The notes under the pieces were generated by a model, which saw only the letters and a list, made by a program, of their open reading frames with translations, had not been told where the DNA came from and did no database searches. Shown in pieces: positions 20,482 through 47,950 of a DNA stretch of 64,000 nt. Position 1 is the first letter of the stretch, and every line of letters begins with the position of its first letter. The position numbers were made by a program, and so were the translations under genes. Source of the DNA: Candidatus Micrarchaeia archaeon (GTDB lineage Archaea; Micrarchaeota; Micrarchaeia; CAILAH01); NCBI GenBank assembly GCA_038874595.1, contig JAVZCB010000001.1:96001-160000 (forward strand). Direction: 5' to 3'.

Positions 20482-20535
20482 CCTCAGAGAAGCGTACATA
20501 TTATGCTTTTATATGTTGGCTGCCTACTATAAAAT

Positions 20536-20591
20536 GGCGATGAAGCTCGCCGGCACAAAAGCGAACCGCCAAAGTTGGCTGATAGCTTCTG
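20536..20591 (+). promoter_or_regulatory. Fluoride (crcB) riboswitch
   Basis: GGCGAUGAAGCUCGCC...AACCGCC-aaaguu-GGCUGAUAGCUUCU: stem GGCGA/UCGCC, pseudoknot GAAGCU/AGCUUC, conserved GAUG and CUGAU; TATA-like ttttatat at 20507-20514. Confidence 0.87.
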
Positions 20592-20612
20592 GTTTTACAC
20601 GAAGGTGGTTTT

Positions 20613-38474: not shown

Positions 38475-38689
38475 TGCGGCCGCCGGGATTTTCACACAGC
38501 TTTCTTTGGAATGCCTAAGAAAGCTGGCAAAGAAGACTCAATTGTTTCTTTTTGCCAACTTTAATCATCCAAGGAAATGGCTGCTTTGAACCCGGATCAT
38601 AAGCTTTCTTTTTTCTGGCGCCGCTCTTTAGGCACCCCGAAAGAGCGGCTTGGAAGGCTCATGTCCTAACCAGGTTAGACTACGGCCGC
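38475..38689 (-). tRNA. tRNA-Gly(TCC) with two introns: 37/38 (38606-38650, 45 nt) and 59/60 (38489-38584, 96 nt)
   Basis: Spliced: GCGGCCGTAGTCTAACCTGGTTAGGACATGAGCCTTCCA^AGCTTATGATCCGGGTTCAAA^TCCCGGCGGCCGCA; T-loop BHB helix TTCA/TGAA. Confidence 0.92.
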
Positions 38690-38803
38690 ACGAGGAGTAT
38701 TTAATTTCCAAAGTATTAAAAAACCAAACTTTATTCGCATGAATTCTGGAAATGAAGAGATTAGAAGGAGAGAGGTGGGCGAAGCCCCCTTCCTCTCCTC
38801 TTA

Positions 38804-39074
38804 TGGGGCTGCCCAGATTTCCACGCCTCTTCTCGTGCAGATTTTTTTATCCTGCAAAGAGAGGGCTTTGAACTGGGGTCTCCAACTTATCCGAAGAGAT
38901 AAATCTCTTCAACCCATCCCAGAGGTTGAGAAGGGAGGGGCTCTGCCTCACCCATGAAGATCCACTTTGTTGTGGATACATCTCAACACCCCGAAGGGGT
39001 TGGGTTGAGAAGGGAGGGGCTCTGCCCCACCCTTCTCCCGAAGCTGGAAGCATACCAGGCTAGCCCACAGCCCC
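38804..39074 (-). tRNA. tRNA-Pro(CGG) with two introns: 37/38 (38888-39036, 149 nt) and 59/60 (38818-38866, 49 nt)
   Basis: Spliced: GGGGCTGTGGGCTAGCCTGGTATGCTTCCAGCTTCGGG^AGTTGGAGACCCCAGTTCAAA^TCTGGGCAGCCCCA; BHB helices TTCG/CGGA and TTCA/TGGA. Confidence 0.92.
38924..39032. repeat. 30-bp direct repeat inside the tRNA-Pro anticodon intron (38924-38953, 39003-39032)
   Basis: ggttgagaagggaggggctctgcc(t/c)caccc, 1 mismatch, 79-bp period. Confidence 0.92.
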
Positions 39075-39111
39075 ATGCTTATTACTAGCTCACCAATTTC
39101 CTCGCAACGTT

Positions 39112-40482
39112 TTAGAGGGATTGATGCGCACCATACATCTCAATATCCTTTTTTATATCCTTAGATTTAGCGATTATACTTTTTAAATAGTTTGACCTTT
39201 TTGCAATCTCATCATAGATTTTATTTTCTCCTACACCATTTGCAAACGCAATCTCCTCGATTATGCGCGACTTTGCAGGTGTACGCACAACAGTATCCTT
39301 TTTTGGGTCGTACAAGTACAAATGCCGTATCATTATGGAGCCACGGCTCTCAGCCAGCTCGCACACTTCAACGACTTTCCTAACCTCACGCACCTTCCCA
39401 TCACCATTAAATTTAAGGAACCTTCTTTGAACAATCACTAAGTCAATCGCATTAAAATCAGAGGGCATAACTTCATTGTAACGCAAACGGGATACAAGCT
39501 CTTTTGCACTATGCGCGTGCATAGTTGCATAACAGCCGCGGGCCTGGCCAGCATTCATGCTTTCAATCATTGCAAGTATCTCTTCTTTAGAGCGCACTTC
39601 ACCTATGATCACTCTATCTGGCCGCATACGGAGACTATCCTCTATCAGGTCTTTCATCTCAATCCCGAGCTGTGGGTTGGTCTTCATTTTGACCTGATGT
39701 TTATGCGGTATTACTATCTCAGGTGTTTCTTCAAGGAGTATTATACGCTCACTTGGCGGTACAAAGGAGAACAGCGCATTCAACGTGGTAGTTTTACCCG
39801 CAGCTGTATTGCCGCAAATTATTACATTTTTATCATTCTGGAAAACTGTCCATAAGAATGCGAGCAGGTCATAATTGTATCCAGTTTTAATCAGCTCACG
39901 TATAGTCAGGGGCGTTTTCTTGAACTTCCTGATTGTAAGCTCAAGGTCAGACACAGGCTCTATGGTTGCGTGCAATCTTGAGCCATCCGGCAGCACAGCA
40001 TTAAGCCGTGGATTCTGCAATGTTATTCGCCTACCAATTGTCCTGGACATTTTATTGATTATATCGATAATTGCTTCCCGCTCGATGAACATTACATTAG
40101 TATCAAGCCATCCCTTTTCACGGTGGAATACAAATATTGGATTATCAAGACCTACAACCGCGATCTCCTCAAGCTCTTCATCTTCAAGCAAGTATGTAAT
40201 CGGTCCGAACGCATACGTTGCAAGGTACGCCGCATCGGTAAGGTATGTTATCTGGTCTTCATCAGCACGAATATTATTTCTCTGCAGGTTTTGAATCAGA
40301 AGCTTGTTAACAATCTTTTTAGCTGCGGCACCATTCTCAATAACTTCATCTTTAACGGTATCGCTGAATTCCTTGCATACATTGTTTATTACATCTATCT
40401 CTTCAAGGCTTAGCTTCTGGACCGGAATTTTATACTGCCCACCGTCAATTACTTTCCATCCAATCCAAGACATTACGTACAC
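39112..40482 (-). CDS. Type II/IV secretion or pilus assembly ATPase (VirB11/CpaF family)
   Basis: LPDGSR, TIRKF, GNTAAGKTT, EETPE, LRMRPDRVIIGEVR, TMHA. Confidence 0.92.
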   Translation of the reverse strand: MYVMSWIGWKVIDGGQYKIPVQKLSLEEIDVINNVCKEFSDTVKDEVIENGAAAKKIVNKLLIQNLQRNNIRADEDQITYLTDAAYLATYAFGPITYLLEDEELEEIAVVGLDNPIFVFHREKGWLDTNVMFIEREAIIDIINKMSRTIGRRITLQNPRLNAVLPDGSRLHATIEPVSDLELTIRKFKKTPLTIRELIKTGYNYDLLAFLWTVFQNDKNVIICGNTAAGKTTTLNALFSFVPPSERIILLEETPEIVIPHKHQVKMKTNPQLGIEMKDLIEDSLRMRPDRVIIGEVRSKEEILAMIESMNAGQARGCYATMHAHSAKELVSRLRYNEVMPSDFNAIDLVIVQRRFLKFNGDGKVREVRKVVEVCELAESRGSIMIRHLYLYDPKKDTVVRTPAKSRIIEEIAFANGVGENKIYDEIAKRSNYLKSIIAKSKDIKKDIEMYGAHQSL

Positions 40483-40487
40483 CTATG

Positions 40488-41267
40488 CTATTTTCCAAAT
40501 CTTCGTTCCCTTTTTGAATATTCTTTAAGTATCTTCTCAAAATCTTCCTTTGAGAAATCTGGCCAATACTTATCAACAAAGAACAGCTCACTGTAAGCAC
40601 TCTGTAGAGGAAGCAATCCTGAGAGCCGGTATTCACCGGAAGTACGGATAATCAGGTCAGGAGGCTGCAAATCGCCGGTCCACAGGCGTTTCATAATCTC
40701 TTCCTCATTTATCTCAGTGATTATACCTTTTTTGTAGTCCTCTGCAACTTTATGTATACAATCAATAATCTCAGGCTTACCCCCATAATTCAGCAGGAAA
40801 TTGACACGATACTCCCCATTTTTTGAGGATTCCTTCTCGGCCCTTTTTATATACTCTTGCAGACGCTGTGGCAAATCATCAATCATCCCATAGAACTTTA
40901 TACTCACTTTTGGGTACTTACTTTCGTTTCCAGCCTCTTTTTCTTTCTGTGCGCGCTGTAGTATCTCCATAAGCTTTGTTTCAAACAGGCGCATCAGGCC
41001 CTCGACCTCTTCATTTGTCCTGTTTTTATTTTCAGTTGAGAACCCCCAAAAAGTTGCTGTATGTATGTTATGCTCTTTGCACCATTTAAGCACTTCACCA
41101 ATTAATTCAATACCTGCCTCATGCCCTTTAATTACATCTAACCCACGTTGTTTAGCCCACCTGCGGTTGCCATCTGGGATGAAAGCAATATGATCCGGTG
41201 TTTTTACTTCAGTATTCCCAGTTTTGCCAACTGGTTGTGAGTGTGCAGTGGACGTAATATATATCAC
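40488..41267 (-). CDS. uppS: cis-prenyltransferase (polyprenyl diphosphate synthase)
   Basis: HIAFIPDGNRRWA, FSTEN, PDLIIRTSGEYRLS, RERRFG. Confidence 0.95.
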   Translation of the reverse strand: MIYITSTAHSQPVGKTGNTEVKTPDHIAFIPDGNRRWAKQRGLDVIKGHEAGIELIGEVLKWCKEHNIHTATFWGFSTENKNRTNEEVEGLMRLFETKLMEILQRAQKEKEAGNESKYPKVSIKFYGMIDDLPQRLQEYIKRAEKESSKNGEYRVNFLLNYGGKPEIIDCIHKVAEDYKKGIITEINEEEIMKRLWTGDLQPPDLIIRTSGEYRLSGLLPLQSAYSELFFVDKYWPDFSKEDFEKILKEYSKRERRFGK

Positions 41268-41435
41268 CCTCTCTTCTTAAACCAACATTCCAATTATTAC
41301 CAGCTGTTACTGGAAGATATATGTACTTTATACAGGTGTGCTTTTTTAACTCTTTGATTGCCCGAGATGCGGTATGATTTAAACGCTTGTTGCAATAATA
41401 TTACCATTTATGAACTGCAACCCTTGTATACCTAC

Positions 41436-42377
41436 CTATTTTTGTGAGATTGGTTCTCCTAATAATATTTCGCATCCTGCAGGCAGTGAGAGCTGTCCTG
41501 CACCAACCAGCTTTACATATCCTATAAGCGGTAACGTAAGCCATGAGCGCCCGAGCACCTGCGATGCGCTGGCGATCGAATTTGTCCGCCTTAAGTTCTT
41601 ATCATAGGCTTGCACATCAAACATCGGGTTATTATCCCCTTTTATTAGATAATAGCTTTCCCCATCTACATTTATTTTTACGATTGCCCTGTGTATTATA
41701 TCACCAATCTCTGAAAACAGGTCCTCTTTTTTAGGCCTGTATACGATTATATCCCCTGTACGGTCGACTGCACTGAAATAATGCCCTGCAATTGTGACCC
41801 CTTCGGTACACACAATCTCCCCTGGTTTCCCACTTACCTTTATGCTGCACAATGAGCATTTATATTGCAATACCTCCCCCTTTGCTTCCAGTCCTGTTTG
41901 TGGGTTTATTGTGCACGGCCTTACAGTTATGCCGTCATCTGAGCACTTGCCACATACATAATGCTCCTCACCGTTTTGTAGTATTTTATTGAACTGCTCT
42001 TTTGTTAATGATACTTCGTATGCTTTGATGGGTGCGTTCTGGAGCAGCACAACATCACCGCGCTGCAAAGTATTAAGCATACTGCAGGAGACAACGGCGT
42101 TAAAAGGTGAGGATGTCCCAAGCAGTATGGATGCTGCAAACAGGACAGAGAGTGCAACCGCGATTGCAATTACAATTTCCCTCAATTCGTGCATTATTCC
42201 TTTTTCTCTTGCGCTCTCGATGCTTTCTGCAACTACCCCCAGTATGAAAAATATCGCAGCGGTTATTGCAAAAATATCAATACGCACAATTACAAATATT
42301 ACTACAAAAGCTATCGCGAGAATATAGAACCATTTGTTCTTATTTATTTTTTTTATGGGTGCTAAGTCTTCTTCCAT
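41436..42377 (-). CDS. Signal peptidase I (S26/Sec11 type) with Cys-rich insertion
   Basis: VVSCSM...LQRGD, GDIIVY, IIHR, KGDNN. Confidence 0.85.
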   Translation of the reverse strand: MEEDLAPIKKINKNKWFYILAIAFVVIFVIVRIDIFAITAAIFFILGVVAESIESAREKGIMHELREIVIAIAVALSVLFAASILLGTSSPFNAVVSCSMLNTLQRGDVVLLQNAPIKAYEVSLTKEQFNKILQNGEEHYVCGKCSDDGITVRPCTINPQTGLEAKGEVLQYKCSLCSIKVSGKPGEIVCTEGVTIAGHYFSAVDRTGDIIVYRPKKEDLFSEIGDIIHRAIVKINVDGESYYLIKGDNNPMFDVQAYDKNLRRTNSIASASQVLGRSWLTLPLIGYVKLVGAGQLSLPAGCEILLGEPISQK

Positions 42378-42395
42378 TAAATAAACACCTATCAC

Positions 42396-42920
42396 CTATT
42401 CATATTTGATATTTGTTGCATTTTTGATGCATCTTGCAAATATGTCCGCAACGCGCACCGGCTCATAGCCTATCTTACGCACAAGCCCGACCGCCTCACT
42501 ATAAGTTATGCCCGAGTAAGAAATATAATACCTACCAATCTTGAAAATCTCCTTAAGAAGAGATAATTTGTGTGGAAATTTCCTGGCAAGCGTACTTTTC
42601 AGCGCAGTGCCACGAACTTTCCTGTCTGTGATGCATACAACACCGCAATTCAGCTCTTTACTAATTTTATCAATATCAACTACGTTAAGGCCGGCTAGCG
42701 TGATGCTATGCACAAAAACAACTTTGCCCTGGTTTCCATATTTCTTTTTGAGCAGCTTTATAATTTGGTCTGTGGAGTCATCCCCATCAACCGTGACGCG
42801 TGTAACCAGTGCATCTTCAACCTTTCCATATCGCATCACAATAGCAACAAGCACAGTTTCTCTGTCACCGCGTCTGAACGGTGCATCATCAATCCCAATT
42901 ATACGGATTCCCGTTTTCAT
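42396..42920 (-). CDS. DUF99 family (endonuclease V-like) protein
   Basis: IIGIDDAPF, VTVDGDDST, AGLNVVD, EPVRVA; conserved position after rpoL. Confidence 0.9.
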   Translation of the reverse strand: MKTGIRIIGIDDAPFRRGDRETVLVAIVMRYGKVEDALVTRVTVDGDDSTDQIIKLLKKKYGNQGKVVFVHSITLAGLNVVDIDKISKELNCGVVCITDRKVRGTALKSTLARKFPHKLSLLKEIFKIGRYYISYSGITYSEAVGLVRKIGYEPVRVADIFARCIKNATNIKYE

Positions 42921-43183
42921 TTTGAGAATGCACTTTTAATATCCTCCAATGTGCCGATAGCCTCTTTTAATGCTTCCTTTAATAATTTCCGCGCTTCACC
43001 CTTTTTGGTTTTTAGCACAAGCAATGGCGGGTCCCTGCTTGGATGGCCTATCACATAAGTCACAAATTCCACATCCTTATTCTCGCTTAGTATATCTTTA
43101 AGAATAGCAGGTATGCTATATTCCTCCCCAATGAATTGTACTTCTATATGGTTTTTTTCATCAACAATAAAATTTACTTTCAC
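42917..43183 (-). CDS. rpoL: RNA polymerase subunit Rpo11 (L)
   Basis: GEEYSIPAILKDIL...VEFVTYVIGHP; csl4-rpoL-DUF99 synteny. Confidence 0.9.
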   Translation of the reverse strand: MKVNFIVDEKNHIEVQFIGEEYSIPAILKDILSENKDVEFVTYVIGHPSRDPPLLVLKTKKGEARKLLKEALKEAIGTLEDIKSAFSK

Positions 43184-43749
43184 ACCATCACCTCAATATA
43201 CGAGGACGAAATTTTTCGTGTCTCCGTCCTGTTGCAGTTTGAGCAGAACAATTTATTATCCTTATTAAGCACCAGCGGCCTCCTGCAGTTTGAGCAGAAC
43301 GCTTTCATCACGCCAAGGTCCTTGCCTTTCATTATAACATCTATACCTCCGCGCTCAACCTTTGATACCTCAACTTTGACAATATCACCTACACGGACGG
43401 CCTCAGACATATTTTTTAAGAAGACACCAAAAGACTTGACACCTTCTATACGCATCATTGCAGAATCATTTGCCAGGTTTACCCTCTTGTCGTTACCATC
43501 CTTTTCATAGTCAAACAACGTCATCATCGCATGGGTTTCTCCAACACTATCAATTATTGCGTAAATTTTCTGCCCAACCTTGACGTTGACCGCGGTGGCA
43601 AAGCTGGGTTTTATACTTATTGTTCTTGTTTTTTCGTCAACCAGTTTATCCCCGCATAGAGATGCGCGCACCAGCTCATTCTCTATATAAGTGCCATCCC
43701 CAGCTGCAAACTCAATTTCTTCTCCAAGCACTTTGCCCGGTGTTTCCAT
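43180..43749 (-). CDS. csl4: Exosome RNA-binding protein Csl4
   Basis: PG...E...GDGTY, S1 domain, DLGVMKAFCSNC...CSNC..E.RKIS. Confidence 0.93.
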   Translation of the reverse strand: METPGKVLGEEIEFAAGDGTYIENELVRASLCGDKLVDEKTRTISIKPSFATAVNVKVGQKIYAIIDSVGETHAMMTLFDYEKDGNDKRVNLANDSAMMRIEGVKSFGVFLKNMSEAVRVGDIVKVEVSKVERGGIDVIMKGKDLGVMKAFCSNCRRPLVLNKDNKLFCSNCNRTETRKISSSYIEVMV

Positions 43750-43801
43750 AGCTAGTTTAAACGTTATTAGGTTTAAATACTTTCTAAAACAATTTTAGCT
43801 G

Positions 43802-45019
43802 ATGCCTCGCAAAACCCTTATATTATGTATTGACAGGGATGCTGACCTTAAAGAGAAAATAGGCGTTGTTGGCCCAGTTGTCGGGCGGGCGCGCAATATT
43901 GATGTGGCCAACCGCCTCCTCCTGGCTGACCCCGAGGAAGTTGACGGTAATACAATATTTGAAGCAGTAAAGCTGTTTGATTCAATGAAAGCAAACGGTG
44001 AGGATGTAGAAGTGGCAACACTTACAGGTGACCCATCACGGGGTTATGTGGCAGACAGGGAGATTGCAGAACAACTTGATAAGGTGTTAACTGAGTTTCC
44101 TGCGGAGGCTTGTATTTTTGTCAGTGATGGCGCAGATGATGAGCAGATACTTCCAATCATAAATTCCAGGATGAAAGTTGACAGTTTACGGCAGGTTTCT
44201 ATGAAGCAGTCAAAAGAACTTGAGAGGACATATTTTCTTATCTTAGACAAGTTGAAAGAGCCGTACTTTGCAAGAATGTTTATCGGCTTGCCAGCACTTA
44301 TACTTCTAGCACTTGTTGCAAGCTATTCACTCGGGTTTGAATGGAAGCCTGTTGCCGCACTTGTTGGTATTTACCTGCTTGCGAAGGGGTTTGGCATAGA
44401 AGATAGGATAATCTACATGCTTTCCCATTTCAAGGTTAGTGCTGAGGAGGTCAGTACTATTGCCTATGTAATAGCAATGCCTTTGTTTGTGCTTGCACTA
44501 TGGCTATCCGCGGATGATTACATAAAGACGGCTGCATCTATGGATAATCTCAAGGCGATAGGTCACAGTGTGCGCTCACTTGTCATTTTTATTGTGCCAC
44601 CAATGGTACTCATATATCTTGGAAAGCTTTATGATAATATCAGGGATGGTAACAGTCTTGGAACTTTACGTATGATGTTTTATGTTATTATGACAGGCAT
44701 TACGTTGTATCTGGTATGGGTCTTTGCAGGATGGGTGATTGCCGAAGTGTATTTCAGTGAATTTGTTAATGCGCTCATTGCAAGCATCATACTTGGAGCT
44801 ATTACGATGGAAACAGTACAATATCTAAAGAGAGACACTATAAAGGGTGTTGACCTGCTCGGCAAGGAGGTCTATTCATCATCCGGCAATTATCTTGGCA
44901 GGGTTGTATCTGTAAGTGATGAGGATAAGGATTTTGTATATATTAATCCCTGGAAGAAAAAGCAGGTATGTGATTATGATAAGATAAAGGATATTGATAC
45001 TAGGATTAATCTTATTTGA
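43802..45019 (+). CDS. DUF373 family membrane protein with C-terminal PRC-barrel-like segment
   Basis: LCIDRDADL, DPEEVDGN, VSDGADDE, KQSKELERTY. Confidence 0.9.
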   Translation: MPRKTLILCIDRDADLKEKIGVVGPVVGRARNIDVANRLLLADPEEVDGNTIFEAVKLFDSMKANGEDVEVATLTGDPSRGYVADREIAEQLDKVLTEFPAEACIFVSDGADDEQILPIINSRMKVDSLRQVSMKQSKELERTYFLILDKLKEPYFARMFIGLPALILLALVASYSLGFEWKPVAALVGIYLLAKGFGIEDRIIYMLSHFKVSAEEVSTIAYVIAMPLFVLALWLSADDYIKTAASMDNLKAIGHSVRSLVIFIVPPMVLIYLGKLYDNIRDGNSLGTLRMMFYVIMTGITLYLVWVFAGWVIAEVYFSEFVNALIASIILGAITMETVQYLKRDTIKGVDLLGKEVYSSSGNYLGRVVSVSDEDKDFVYINPWKKKQVCDYDKIKDIDTRINLI

Positions 45020-45031
45020 AAATAGAAGAAG

Positions 45032-45496
45032 GTGGATATATCAATGATACCTGAATCGCAATATATTGAATCGACGATTGTGGTCCGTGATATGCGTATG
45101 CCGCAAGAGGTAACGCTGACCAAAGCGTCTTTGATAAGATGGTTAGCCCTTGCGCTGGGCTTGATTAATCCCAACGAGTCACGCAAATCCTTAATAGATC
45201 TTGTTGAGGTTCTTCTCAATCACCAGCTTAGAACAAGGCAAGGTATGTCTGTTGATGATATTATGTCTGCGCTCAAATCTGCAGGGAAGGTGTGCAGTGA
45301 GAAAACTGTTAGGTATCACCTGCTGAGGATGGAGAGACGCGGTGTGGTGCGCAGGAAGAATAAGGAATATTCATTTATCATATCAGACCTGGATGATGCA
45401 GGCATTGAGTCAATAGCAGATTCTTATGATTTGAGATATAAAAGTGCAATGGATAAGATAAGGATTGCACTTTCCAAGCTTAAAGGGATGTACTGA
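45032..45496 (+). CDS. Conserved hypothetical winged-helix protein
   Basis: RWLALALGL...SEKTVRYHLLRM. Confidence 0.75.
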   Translation: MDISMIPESQYIESTIVVRDMRMPQEVTLTKASLIRWLALALGLINPNESRKSLIDLVEVLLNHQLRTRQGMSVDDIMSALKSAGKVCSEKTVRYHLLRMERRGVVRRKNKEYSFIISDLDDAGIESIADSYDLRYKSAMDKIRIALSKLKGMY

Positions 45497-46428
45497 TGAC
45501 CCGTGTTTTTGTAACTGGTGGTACCGGAAGGCTTGGTGCATATACTGTTCAGCTACTTCTCAGGAATGGGTATGAAGTTGTTGCATTGAGCCGGGATAAG
45601 GAAGTTCCAGGATGCATTACAGTGAAAGGAAGCATGTTTGATTTTGATTATTCAAAGATTAAAGGGTGCACTCATGCAATCCATCTTGCAGGCACAACCG
45701 ATATGTCTTTGCCTCCTCAAACAATCTATTCGCTTAATGTTGAAGGGACAAAAAGCATTGTTGAGCGCTGCTCGCAAGCAGGCATTCCACATTTCATATT
45801 TATAAGCTCAATCTCGGTTTATGGAAAGCTGGACAATAAGAATATAACCGAGCGCACGCCACTGCACCCTGATACGCCATATGCAAAGAGCAAGTTCCAA
45901 GGTGAGATGGTCGTTCATGGATATTCTGGTGATGTATGCATCTTGCGCCCTTCTATAATATACGGCCGCGGGTTTGATACCGGGTTTAGGACAGCTTATG
46001 ATATGATAACTTCTGGCAGAATGCTTCTGGTTGGGGATGGTAACAACCACGTTCCTCTGGTTCATGCGAGGGATGTGGCAAATGCAATCCTGCTAGCAGT
46101 TGCAAGTGATGCACGTGGGATATACAATGTAAATGATGAGCGTGAGCTGACACAGAAACAGCTTGTTGATTATGTTGCTAAGCTTACTAACTCTTCAAGC
46201 GTGCGTACCAGTGTACCTAGGTTTGCGGTGGGACCGCTTCTTGCAATTTATAATGTCTTGCGCTCGCTAAAAGCCAAACCACCAATTCCTTCTGAATTTA
46301 TTGATATGCTTGCTACGGACAGGGTCATAAAAACAGGGAAAATACAGGAAGAGCTTGGGTTTAATAATTCGTGCACAGTTGAGGAGGGTGTAAGAGAGTT
46401 TGTTGAATACCTCTCAACTAAACAATAA
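45496..46428 (+). CDS. NAD-dependent epimerase/dehydratase
   Basis: TGGTGRLG, YAKSK, LRPSIIYG. Confidence 0.93.
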   Translation: MTRVFVTGGTGRLGAYTVQLLLRNGYEVVALSRDKEVPGCITVKGSMFDFDYSKIKGCTHAIHLAGTTDMSLPPQTIYSLNVEGTKSIVERCSQAGIPHFIFISSISVYGKLDNKNITERTPLHPDTPYAKSKFQGEMVVHGYSGDVCILRPSIIYGRGFDTGFRTAYDMITSGRMLLVGDGNNHVPLVHARDVANAILLAVASDARGIYNVNDERELTQKQLVDYVAKLTNSSSVRTSVPRFAVGPLLAIYNVLRSLKAKPPIPSEFIDMLATDRVIKTGKIQEELGFNNSCTVEEGVREFVEYLSTKQ

Positions 46429-46430
46429 AA

Positions 46431-47381
46431 TCATAAGTCCCTAGCTGCTTTTTTGAGTGTTGACCAAAACTCTTTTTCTGCCTCTTTCCATTCATTTTCA
46501 ATATCTGGGCGGAGTTTTGTGCGTGACAGTATTGTGTTGTGGAACAGTTCAAGCCCGCCAATTCTTCTTTCTAGGCCGAACGTTCCTGAAACCGAAGTTG
46601 CACGCGGAATTATATGTATTTTAAACATGTCCTTATCATATTCCGAAATCATCCAGTTTACCCCAATCCCTGAGGTTACCCGGGTATTAAGAAGGAACTC
46701 TATGTTGTTTAGATTGTCTGTAGAAATACCATATAACCAGGCAACCCTTTCAAGATTATGATAGCCATACCCATACTGCACAACTTGCTCGTACATTCTG
46801 CTTTGCACTAAACGGAAGAAGCCATCAAACAGCTGTGGGATAATGCTTCTAATATAATCGTACAAATCATTCCTGTGAATCTTACGCGTAACCGCAGTAT
46901 CATACCCGTTGCAGAGTGTCAAATGCCCGCTTTCAACAAGAATAGGCACCGATAACGGGTCAGCTATCAGGTTTTCAGCAGATTTAAGCTCAAGATATTT
47001 TGACTCTTCCACCTTTGAACAAAGAAGATGGATGTGTAAGTGCCGTATCGTTTGCCCGGCAACAATCCCAAAATTGCCAAGTGCGGTTGCACCGGGGAAG
47101 TGTTGTAGTATTTTGCCGATAGCTGTGAACATACTATCAAACTGGTTCTTTGATATATTATGGAGTGTAAGCAGATGCTCTTTTGGTGTGATAATACAAT
47201 GTTGTGGTATATAGGGATACTTTGCCTTAAGTATCCTCCAGTTTGAGCTGCTTTCAACCAAAGGTTCCTCAGCAAGCGTACAAAATCTGCAATTTGATAT
47301 ACCCTTGGTCTTCATCTCTCTTGATGTGAATGAAGGTGTTTTTTCGTCCCATCTAGGTGCCTTGATTTCATAGACGACCAT
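46431..47381 (-). CDS. HIT family hydrolase with C-terminal extension
   Basis: CRFC, KYPY...H, AGQTIRHLHIHL. Confidence 0.82.
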   Translation of the reverse strand: MVVYEIKAPRWDEKTPSFTSREMKTKGISNCRFCTLAEEPLVESSSNWRILKAKYPYIPQHCIITPKEHLLTLHNISKNQFDSMFTAIGKILQHFPGATALGNFGIVAGQTIRHLHIHLLCSKVEESKYLELKSAENLIADPLSVPILVESGHLTLCNGYDTAVTRKIHRNDLYDYIRSIIPQLFDGFFRLVQSRMYEQVVQYGYGYHNLERVAWLYGISTDNLNNIEFLLNTRVTSGIGVNWMISEYDKDMFKIHIIPRATSVSGTFGLERRIGGLELFHNTILSRTKLRPDIENEWKEAEKEFWSTLKKAARDL

Positions 47382-47491
47382 ACAGCGATATTATGAAAAA
47401 TTATGGATTAAAAACATTTTGGTTTTTTGTGAAGCAAAAATGCGGGCGGCTGCGCCAAATAAAGCAGAATGGCCAAAAATAAAATGGGTAA

Positions 47492-47950
47492 TGGACCTGC
47501 GCGGAATTGAACCGCGGATCTCTCGCGAAAGGGGGCATGTTTTCTTCAGCATTTTTGGCTGAAGATAAATTACCTTTCCCCACCAATCCCATATTTTAAT
47601 GGAGTTGGGTCTTATGGGGCGTCTTTGGGCTTGCCAATGACGCGTCATTTTCCCGAAGGGAAAATGCACGGAGGGGGACACCTCCCCCTCACATTCCCAA
47701 TACCTCAAAACCTCCTTAGAGGGGGAGTTGGGTCTTATGGGAGAGGGGGACACCTCCCCCTCACATTCCCAATACCTCAAAACCTCCTTAGAAGGGGAGT
47801 TGGGTCTTATGGGAGAGGGGGACACCTCCCCCTCACATTCCCAATACCTCAAAACCTCCTTAGAAGGGGAGTTGGGTCTTATGGGAGAGGGGGACACCTC
47901 CCCCTCACCCATATGTGAGGCGAGCGTCTTAACCACTCGACTACAGGTCC
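47492..47950 (-). tRNA. tRNA-Val(CAC) with 386-nt insertion/intron at 37/38 (47528-47913)
   Basis: 5' exon GGACCTGTAGTCGAGTGGTTAAGACGCTCGCCTCACA; 3' exon CGCGAGAGATCCGCGGTTCAATTCCGCGCAGGTCCA; all stems pair. Confidence 0.9.
47671..47908. repeat. 72-bp tandem repeat, 3.3 copies, inside the tRNA-Val intron
   Basis: Units start at 47671, 47743, 47815 and 47887; one substitution in copy 1; 18-nt sub-motif ggagttgggtcttatggg recurs at 47601-47618. Confidence 0.97.

Follow-up and report, generated by a model that had tools for sequence, protein, structure and literature searches.

Two tRNA introns of an archaeal genome open with a similar G/C-rich hairpin, and a third hairpin lies just past the 3' end of one of the two genes, which raises the question of whether these hairpins belong to a mobile element, to a structured RNA or to neither. 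The DNA analyzed, here called the window, is a stretch of 64,000 nucleotides from a Candidatus Micrarchaeia archaeon (assembly GCA_038874595.1, contig JAVZCB010000001.1, positions 96,001 to 160,000, forward strand). The source genome is a 918-kb Micrarchaeota metagenome-assembled genome (MAG), and the metagenome runs that contain it are from hot springs. We found that the hairpins in the window are parts of a unit of approximately 55 nt that is present in many copies, turns over between species, co-varies across three tracts, and is joined to its sites by one fixed end. The unit is real, mobile and undescribed in the literature that we searched, where no description of the element was found; the mechanism that we set out for it is a proposal. 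Plain coordinates below are window positions, and G, C, and L numbers are our handles for genomes, contigs, and loci.

The genes for tRNA-Gly(TCC), tRNA-Pro(CGG), and tRNA-Val(CAC) were all missed when the window was scanned with ARAGORN and Rfam at default settings, which reported no tRNA at all. With a custom stem-pairing parser, we located these three genes in the interval, all on the minus strand, and the exons of each join into a cloverleaf with full stems. The tRNA-Pro gene (38804..39074; exons 39037-39074, 38867-38887, and 38804-38817) has a 149-nt intron at position 37/38 (38888..39036) and a module-free, 49-nt T-loop intron at 59/60 (38818..38866), both of which form a 4-bp central splice helix between two 3-nt bulges with 4/4 pairs. 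The tRNA-Val gene (47492..47950; exons 47914-47950 and 47492-47527) is interrupted at 37/38 by a compound intron of 386 nt (47528..47913). Parsed genome-wide, there were 43 tRNA genes with 54 introns, 12 of them at least 100 nt long, plus a Tyr gene and a permuted Ala gene; an Arg(CCT) gene was not found in the parsed genome.

From their first base, the Pro and Val 37/38 introns share an outer stem, a U.U mismatch, a G/C inner hairpin, and a C-rich linker. A first-pass annotation of the window had taken these openings for related modules, and they are: their likeness exceeds that of dinucleotide shuffles (p=0.0015) and of structure-preserving shuffles (p=0.0005). The Pro module, of subfamily A (the names A, V, B, C, and G, and K in the other family of genomes, are given here), consists of a hairpin, P1, that runs from the 5' splice site (39008..39036, minus strand), followed by a mirror tail that is the putative third strand (38995..39007, minus strand). 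The Val module, of subfamily V, likewise has P1 from the 5' splice site (47880..47913, minus strand) and a mirror tail (47864..47879, minus strand). The repeat periods of 79 and 72 nt given in that annotation are correct. Its reading that the opening hairpin is what has been duplicated in both introns needs correction: in Pro, the repeat is a 30-nt piece only (38924..38953, minus strand), 97% identical at a spacing of 79 nt and with a decayed tail, and in Val, the whole 72-nt unit recurs 3.3 times with 99% identity (47671..47908, minus strand). A two-hairpin insert, read by eye, lies in the 3' arm of the last V copy (47620..47670, minus strand), and inserts like it were seen by eye in Arg, Ile, Cys, His, Tyr, and Trp copies as well. 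The idea that this insert is a nested bulge-helix-bulge (BHB) intron was dropped, since its ends, also judged by eye, give no splice motif. Both repeats look real, because the same Pro duplication and the same Val 72-nt cycle were found again in a metagenome run from a second study. Read mapping to the repeats left out the Val array itself. By contig depth, the Pro unit stands at 25 versus about 10 and the Val unit at 7 versus 10 in the second-study run, a hint only that Pro unit copies are up and Val unit copies down there; in the likely source run, the Val unit stands at 18 versus about 9.

Other parts of the annotated module did not stand up. The CCA bulge proposed for endonuclease cleavage is without a partner bulge and is not conserved, and the second hairpin said to be shared by the two introns is not conserved either, its 3' strand being different in every copy. 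This hairpin initially seemed to be an intron-specific feature, and it proved to be mostly a composition effect, with its pairing largely explained by G-richness (mean z of -0.7). The hairpin in the tRNA-Pro trailer had been described, at 38765-38802, as an inverted relative of the Pro and Val modules. It is a copy in tRNA sense (38753..38801, minus strand; hairpin 38763-38801) with a shortened tail, and its purine arm comes first on the transcribed strand, 2 nt past the discriminator, as in the intron copies. It belongs to a different subfamily, C: in dinucleotide shuffles, its similarity to the Pro and Val modules is not significant (p=0.19 and 0.15), and it is close to the copy that sits within the Trp T-loop intron and to the one in the Ser(GCT) leader (scores of 72 and 82; p=0.002, the floor of the test).

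Subfamily profiles gave 32 matches in the genome, and each of them lies no more than 300 nt from a tRNA gene, in a zone that makes up 4.3% of the genome. MAFFT misaligned the G-runs, which left a model (R1) with only 3 pairs that acts as a sequence profile; covariation was counted in scripts. A mixed model matched every one of the 8 other genomes in the family and 2 of 3 in one other family. Among 140 genomes of the class, it matched 5 more, 2 of which look spurious on inspection. The occupants of a given site differ between species. In five species, the Val(CAC) 37/38 site is occupied by V, V, A, C, or a plain intron of 16 nt. At Pro(CGG), the occupant is A, V, V, or B, and in the Pro trailer, it is C in this genome and B in a sister species. 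This genome lacks an anticodon intron in Lys(CTT), Thr(TGT), Glu(TTC), Ser(TGA), and Pro(TGG), whose counterparts in relatives carry a module at that place. Because orthologous sites swap subfamily between species, we conclude that the unit moves. Sequence is also shared between introns of different isotypes, in 13 of 54 introns (24%) compared to 0.1% when shuffled, and an Arg anticodon intron and an Ile T-loop intron have 120 identical bases. The earlier suggestion of a mini mobile element that uses tRNA introns as a safe harbor and amplifies there is upheld by the 32 matches, the subfamily swaps, and the shared introns, and the copies also show covariation, across three tracts.

The three tracts are a purine arm and, across a variable loop, a pyrimidine arm followed by its mirror image, the tail. 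Both the pairing of P1 and its pyrimidine mismatch are conserved, and the loop is free to vary. In 30 subfamily-B copies read in a fixed register, an arm C faces a tail C at 223 of 243 positions and an arm T faces a tail T or A at 80 of 85 (38 T and 42 A, with 18 of the 42 from one conserved position). A copy's own tail fits better than permuted tails, both overall and within each of the two B sub-lineages (p<1e-4), and the trend is the same in subfamilies A (p=0.01) and V (p=0.006). Under strict scoring, a direct-repeat control was not significant. The mirror pattern recurs in metagenome copies, six of them new, and the Pro and Val modules of the window obey it. Since a polymerase cannot write a mirror copy, we infer selection for three-stranded pairing. 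An antiparallel purine motif on the G-rich strand allows A or T opposite A-T pairs, whereas T would be required for a pyrimidine motif on the C-rich strand, a motif that is broken by the A present in the tail at about half of the A-T positions. Folding predictions have the tail paired off in 38 of 41 intron copies. RNA does not form purine-motif triplexes, some of which arrest polymerases (PMC4666352). These sequence patterns suggest that the G-rich strand may fold, as single-stranded DNA, into a putative intrastrand purine-motif triplex, and that this fold may be what is selected for spread.

To describe how the unit meets its neighbors, we read about 85 sites and tallied them by hand. Sense copies account for roughly 45 sites at 37/38, 11 in T- or D-loops, and 7 at a stop codon or the 3' end of an RNA. 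Antisense copies make up about 22 sites (about a quarter), which are found at 3' splice sites or +1 or alongside a tRNA 3' end that has been duplicated. In either orientation, the exon is always faced by the start of the purine arm, nearly always at a distance of 0-3 nt, and one Ser intron has a sense and an antisense copy at its two ends. Copies were also found at the 3' ends of signal recognition particle (SRP) RNA and RNase P RNA and at an interruption of a 23S rRNA gene, all Rfam-confirmed, as well as directly past stop codons and in an operon spacer. The junction bases are varied, with no fixed target motif. Target duplications of 11, 21, 10, and 11 nt surround antisense copies at tRNA 3' ends, one of 46 nt surrounds a copy past a stop codon, and the repeats that flank insertions run beyond the tRNA into the flank. 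Behind tRNA-Ser(GCT) of a sister species, one copy closes a 1,520-bp insertion between 11-bp repeats; the insertion carries a foreign AT-rich gene that is absent at the same place in this genome and whose product is a 472-aa metallophosphoesterase with an RNase H-like domain (L114:888-2306). Fold-back copying from a tRNA's own trailer was considered as a source of the +1 copies and rejected, as the junction bases mismatch the discriminator in most cases, and the arrays were rejected as rolling-circle products because their junctions are inexact. In a sister species, the module tail behind the RNase P RNA gene has expanded to a short-unit tandem array (L066:1380-1500).

We also searched the genomes, which are MAGs that are 61-95% complete, for mobilizing enzymes. 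A Y1 (HUH) transposase was found in 0 of 10 genomes, whose completeness is 64-95%, and a tyrosine integrase in 0 of 5, and no tyrosine recombinase domain, not even a Xer homologue, was found in G000, G001, G002, G006, and G007. Cas1 was found in 1 of 9 genomes, which is not the source genome, and a reverse transcriptase in 1 of 10, there within a diversity-generating retroelement (DGR). This DGR, with its reverse transcriptase and its template and variable repeats, is in a sister species (L042:1255-2820). In IMG/VR, there was no match to subfamily B, and the short-pattern matches for A and V all were without a hairpin arm.

The genome encodes both the splicing endonuclease EndA and the ligase RtcB; the split in the match to EndA reflects an assembly gap and not an intron. 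The endonuclease of Micrarchaeota (epsilon2) cuts relaxed motifs (PMC3239211). The Val intron has 0/4 pairs in a one-step splice helix, the sole such case among the 54 introns. Its last 48 nt (47528..47575, minus strand), next to the 3' splice site, are read here as a probable inner intron. Together with the end of the unit before them, they fold into a bulge-helix motif, and the Val introns of three relatives end in the same C-rich way. On these two grounds, the stacked introns of Val are likely removed in order, and the inner intron would need to be removed first to restore the splice helix for the rest. Each junction between Val units (within 47671-47908) holds an 8-nt complement of the anticodon loop, which may be a chance product of the junction and does not account for the 3' splice site.

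Taken as a whole, these observations are best explained, with a probability that we put at about 55%, by a non-autonomous DNA repeat with a predicted triplex on its G-rich strand that is joined by one end at structured-RNA genes through host processes and is kept where RNA processing discards it. The joining would probably occur at highly structured RNA genes by template switching or break repair, would sometimes duplicate 10-46 nt of the target, and in one case would have brought in 1.5 kb of foreign DNA. An insert within a tRNA would survive only if it were wholly cut out by the broad-specificity splicing endonuclease and would thereby become a new intron; inserts in leaders and trailers would be trimmed away during normal processing. 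Slippage and conversion between copies could then produce arrays and stacked introns such as that of Val. Several points weigh against this explanation. The profiles that placed every match near a tRNA gene were seeded from tRNA loci. The copies are related, so that the permutation p-values overstate independence, and about a dozen distinct arm patterns carry the signal. For the comparable bacterial motif, triplex formation in vivo is not supported (PMC4666352). No mobilizing enzyme was found in these incomplete MAGs, and none of Y1 transposase, integrase, Cas1, and free reverse transcriptase tracks with the unit. Contact with the splice site is forced on a new intron by survival, but contact with tRNA +1 or 0-2 nt past RNA 3' ends is not, which favors ends that are defined by RNA and which a DNA-only route explains poorly. 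We regard as tentative, and on balance doubtful, a bolder form of the explanation, in which the unit represents a class of mobile DNA, enzyme-less and so far undescribed, that is marked by a fold-back triple helix and not by a sequence. Such DNA would be actively joined at the boundaries where RNA is processed, would sometimes carry genes, and would be the main source of new tRNA and rRNA introns in these archaea.

The RNA-defined ends lead to an alternative that we consider unlikely, in which excised introns are re-ligated by EndA and RtcB to cut pre-tRNA ends, reverse-transcribed, and recombined back, so that the module is a successful intron family and the antisense copies are template jumps of the cDNA at RNA 5' ends. 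The start of most copies does coincide exactly with a 5' splice site or the 3' end of an RNA, antisense copies lie directly against +1 and position 38, both of which are RNA 5' ends, and a complete splice-site tail closes the first Val unit and the Ile T-loop units, as it would close whole introns. The 24% cross-isotype sharing is also near the 28.3% of Thermoproteales, which was obtained by a different method (10.64898/2026.10.13.758758). However, 9 of the 10 genomes yielded no reverse transcriptase, the array junctions are not exact circle junctions, no CCA is added at the 3'-end insertions, the target duplications and the 1.5-kb cargo are unexpected, and the purine-motif mirror pattern goes unexplained. 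It is more improbable still that there is no dedicated element and that ordinary hairpin introns were spread by slippage and by gene conversion between similar tRNA genes, with splicing selection setting the positions. Conversion would fit the near-identical T-loop introns of two Gly genes, the identical leaders on tRNAs with similar 5' ends, the T-loop-type tails within the Leu anticodon intron, and the copy-number change between populations at which the contig depths hint, and conversion and slippage probably explain the secondary arrays. They cannot put one fixed-end unit at 37/38, 59/60, the D-loop, +1, SRP RNA, RNase P RNA, rRNA, and stop codons or produce a mirror tail, which no polymerase copies, and some insertions, past stop codons and in the operon spacer, are at sites without homology to any donor locus.

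We give little credence to an undiscovered extrachromosomal replicon, of which the unit would be the end or origin and the chromosomal copies one-ended integration scars that sample its variants. The copy that closes the 1,520-bp insertion would suit such a replicon, as would the presence in one genome of many variants that differ in all three tracts at once, which asks much of local mutation; set against this, IMG/VR holds no true copy for three subfamily patterns, and the cargo protein is no recombinase. Excised archaeal introns are circularized, and the first-pass annotation had suggested a structured RNA family that could be a functional circular RNA. A circular RNA or ribozyme resident in tRNA introns is, in our estimate, very improbable. 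The conserved P1 pairing and pyrimidine mismatch would agree with it, and the intron strand could formally make a pyrimidine-motif RNA triplex (PMC4666352), but the tail A's break that motif and the tail is predicted to be paired off in nearly all intron copies. The conserved mirror pattern fits a triplex of the purine-motif type, which RNA does not form. In addition, the module has no Rfam family match and no invariant catalytic core, its loops and second hairpin vary freely, none of its sites is conserved between species, and many copies are antisense or outside introns, where no circle arises. The evidence thus speaks more for a parasite at the DNA level, tolerated in RNA that is discarded, than for a functional circular RNA.

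In size and arrangement, the unit recalls the REP, REPIN, and BIME repeats with their RAYT proteins and the miniature elements of IS200/IS605, which are tiny non-coding hairpin units in tandem and inverted composites. It differs from them in the lack of a Y1 transposase in the 10 genomes and of a fixed target tetranucleotide and in having target duplications at some sites and a third, mirror tract. The GC-rich palindromes beside tRNA genes in Neurospora mitochondria and the double-hairpin elements of fungal mitochondria are also enzyme-less and collect beside tRNAs and in introns. These are organellar elements, and to our knowledge they neither create protein-spliced tRNA introns nor show a triplex pattern. 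Closest in build are BoxC, PIT, and TMECO, intrastrand triplex repeats of bacteria (Holder et al. 2015, PMC4666352), which share with the unit a multi-copy G/C-rich hairpin with a mirror tract, conserved stems, variable loops, and a link to local instability. TMECO is of class II, is always intergenic, and has a fixed consensus (PMC4666352), for which there was no match in the genome; by the definitions of that paper, the unit is of class I on its G-rich strand (class III on the other). Unlike these bacterial repeats, it varies in all three tracts together and targets the boundaries of tRNAs and other stable RNAs. Closest in outcome are the transposed introns of Thermoproteales, for which secondary accounts describe related introns across tRNA types and positions and removal by a broad-specificity EndA (Fujishima et al. 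2010, via PMC4033280 and 10.64898/2026.10.13.758758). In contrast to those introns, the unit is smaller than an intron, has one fixed end, occurs in both orientations and also outside introns, and comes with target duplications, arrays, and a triplex signature. ARMAN-2, another member of the Micrarchaeota, has heavily interrupted tRNA genes with BHB introns at 37/38 and 59/60 and tolerates relaxed splice motifs (PMC3239211); in the present genome, introns are as long as 386 nt, and they are stacked and made up of mobile units. Integrative elements of the SSV and pNOB8 types place direct repeats of tRNA 3' ends around inserted DNA (PMC3293823), as seen here, where the repeats measure 10-46 nt, include flank beyond the tRNA or a stop-codon region, and occur with no integrase found in 5 genomes. 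With respect to casposons, Cas1 was not found in the source genome and the unit has one fixed end rather than terminal inverted repeats, and with respect to target-primed retroelements, the sole reverse transcriptase is that of the DGR in one relative. Thus, the unit resembles Thermoproteales intron transposition in outcome and PIT/TMECO in build and lacks the defining features of both, as well as those of the REP, integrative, and casposon families.

How tRNA introns arrive has been stated to be an open question, and no general route was found in Asgard archaea (2026 preprint, 10.64898/2026.10.13.758758). The family described here gives a testable handle on the origin of archaeal tRNA introns, in that it offers a donor unit with a defined end, junction scars, and recent gains at sites where sister species have no intron. 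Covariation of the three tracts over many natural variants would also give unusually direct evidence from evolution that an intrastrand DNA triplex is under selection in cells. In practical terms, the inserts hide tRNA genes from standard tools.

The third tRNA gene of the interval, tRNA-Gly(TCC) (38475..38689, minus strand), serves as context only, as its hairpins are of a different family. The parser placed in it a 45-nt 37/38 intron (38606-38650, minus strand) and a 96-nt 59/60 intron (38489-38584, minus strand). The latter is nearly identical to the 98-nt T-loop intron of Gly(CCC) (G000 C6 35067-35300), which suggests recent conversion. The second hairpin family is found in Gly (at 38606-38650), Asp, and Ala introns, with one copy away from tRNAs and directly past a stop codon (G000 C2 26557-26593) and, in one relative, many copies near contig ends. 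Tandem repeats of tRNA 3' ends with hairpin spacers lie downstream of Ala, two Ser, and Asn genes, with periods of 63, 91, 111, and 55 nt (G000 C2 682-808, C3 54792-54974, C4 79070-79181, and C6 28458-28680), and a relative has an array of 137-bp units composed of the 3' part of initiator tRNA and an antisense module (L109, L094).

Other tRNA genes also depart from the common arrangement. A circularly permuted tRNA-Ala(TGC) lies on the minus strand in the 16S-23S spacer (G000 C3, about 80780-80960), where the 3' half, with its T-loop intron, precedes the 5' half and the split is at 37/38; in one relative, Ala(TGC) is an ordinary intron-containing gene. The intron of tRNA-Lys(TTT) sits early in the T-loop, off 59/60 (G000 C3 94738-94848), and Leu(TAG) and Ser(CGA) have D-loop introns. 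Elsewhere in the window, a fluoride riboswitch is present on the plus strand at 20527-20598, with an Rfam score of 41.2 compared to a cut-off of 34.

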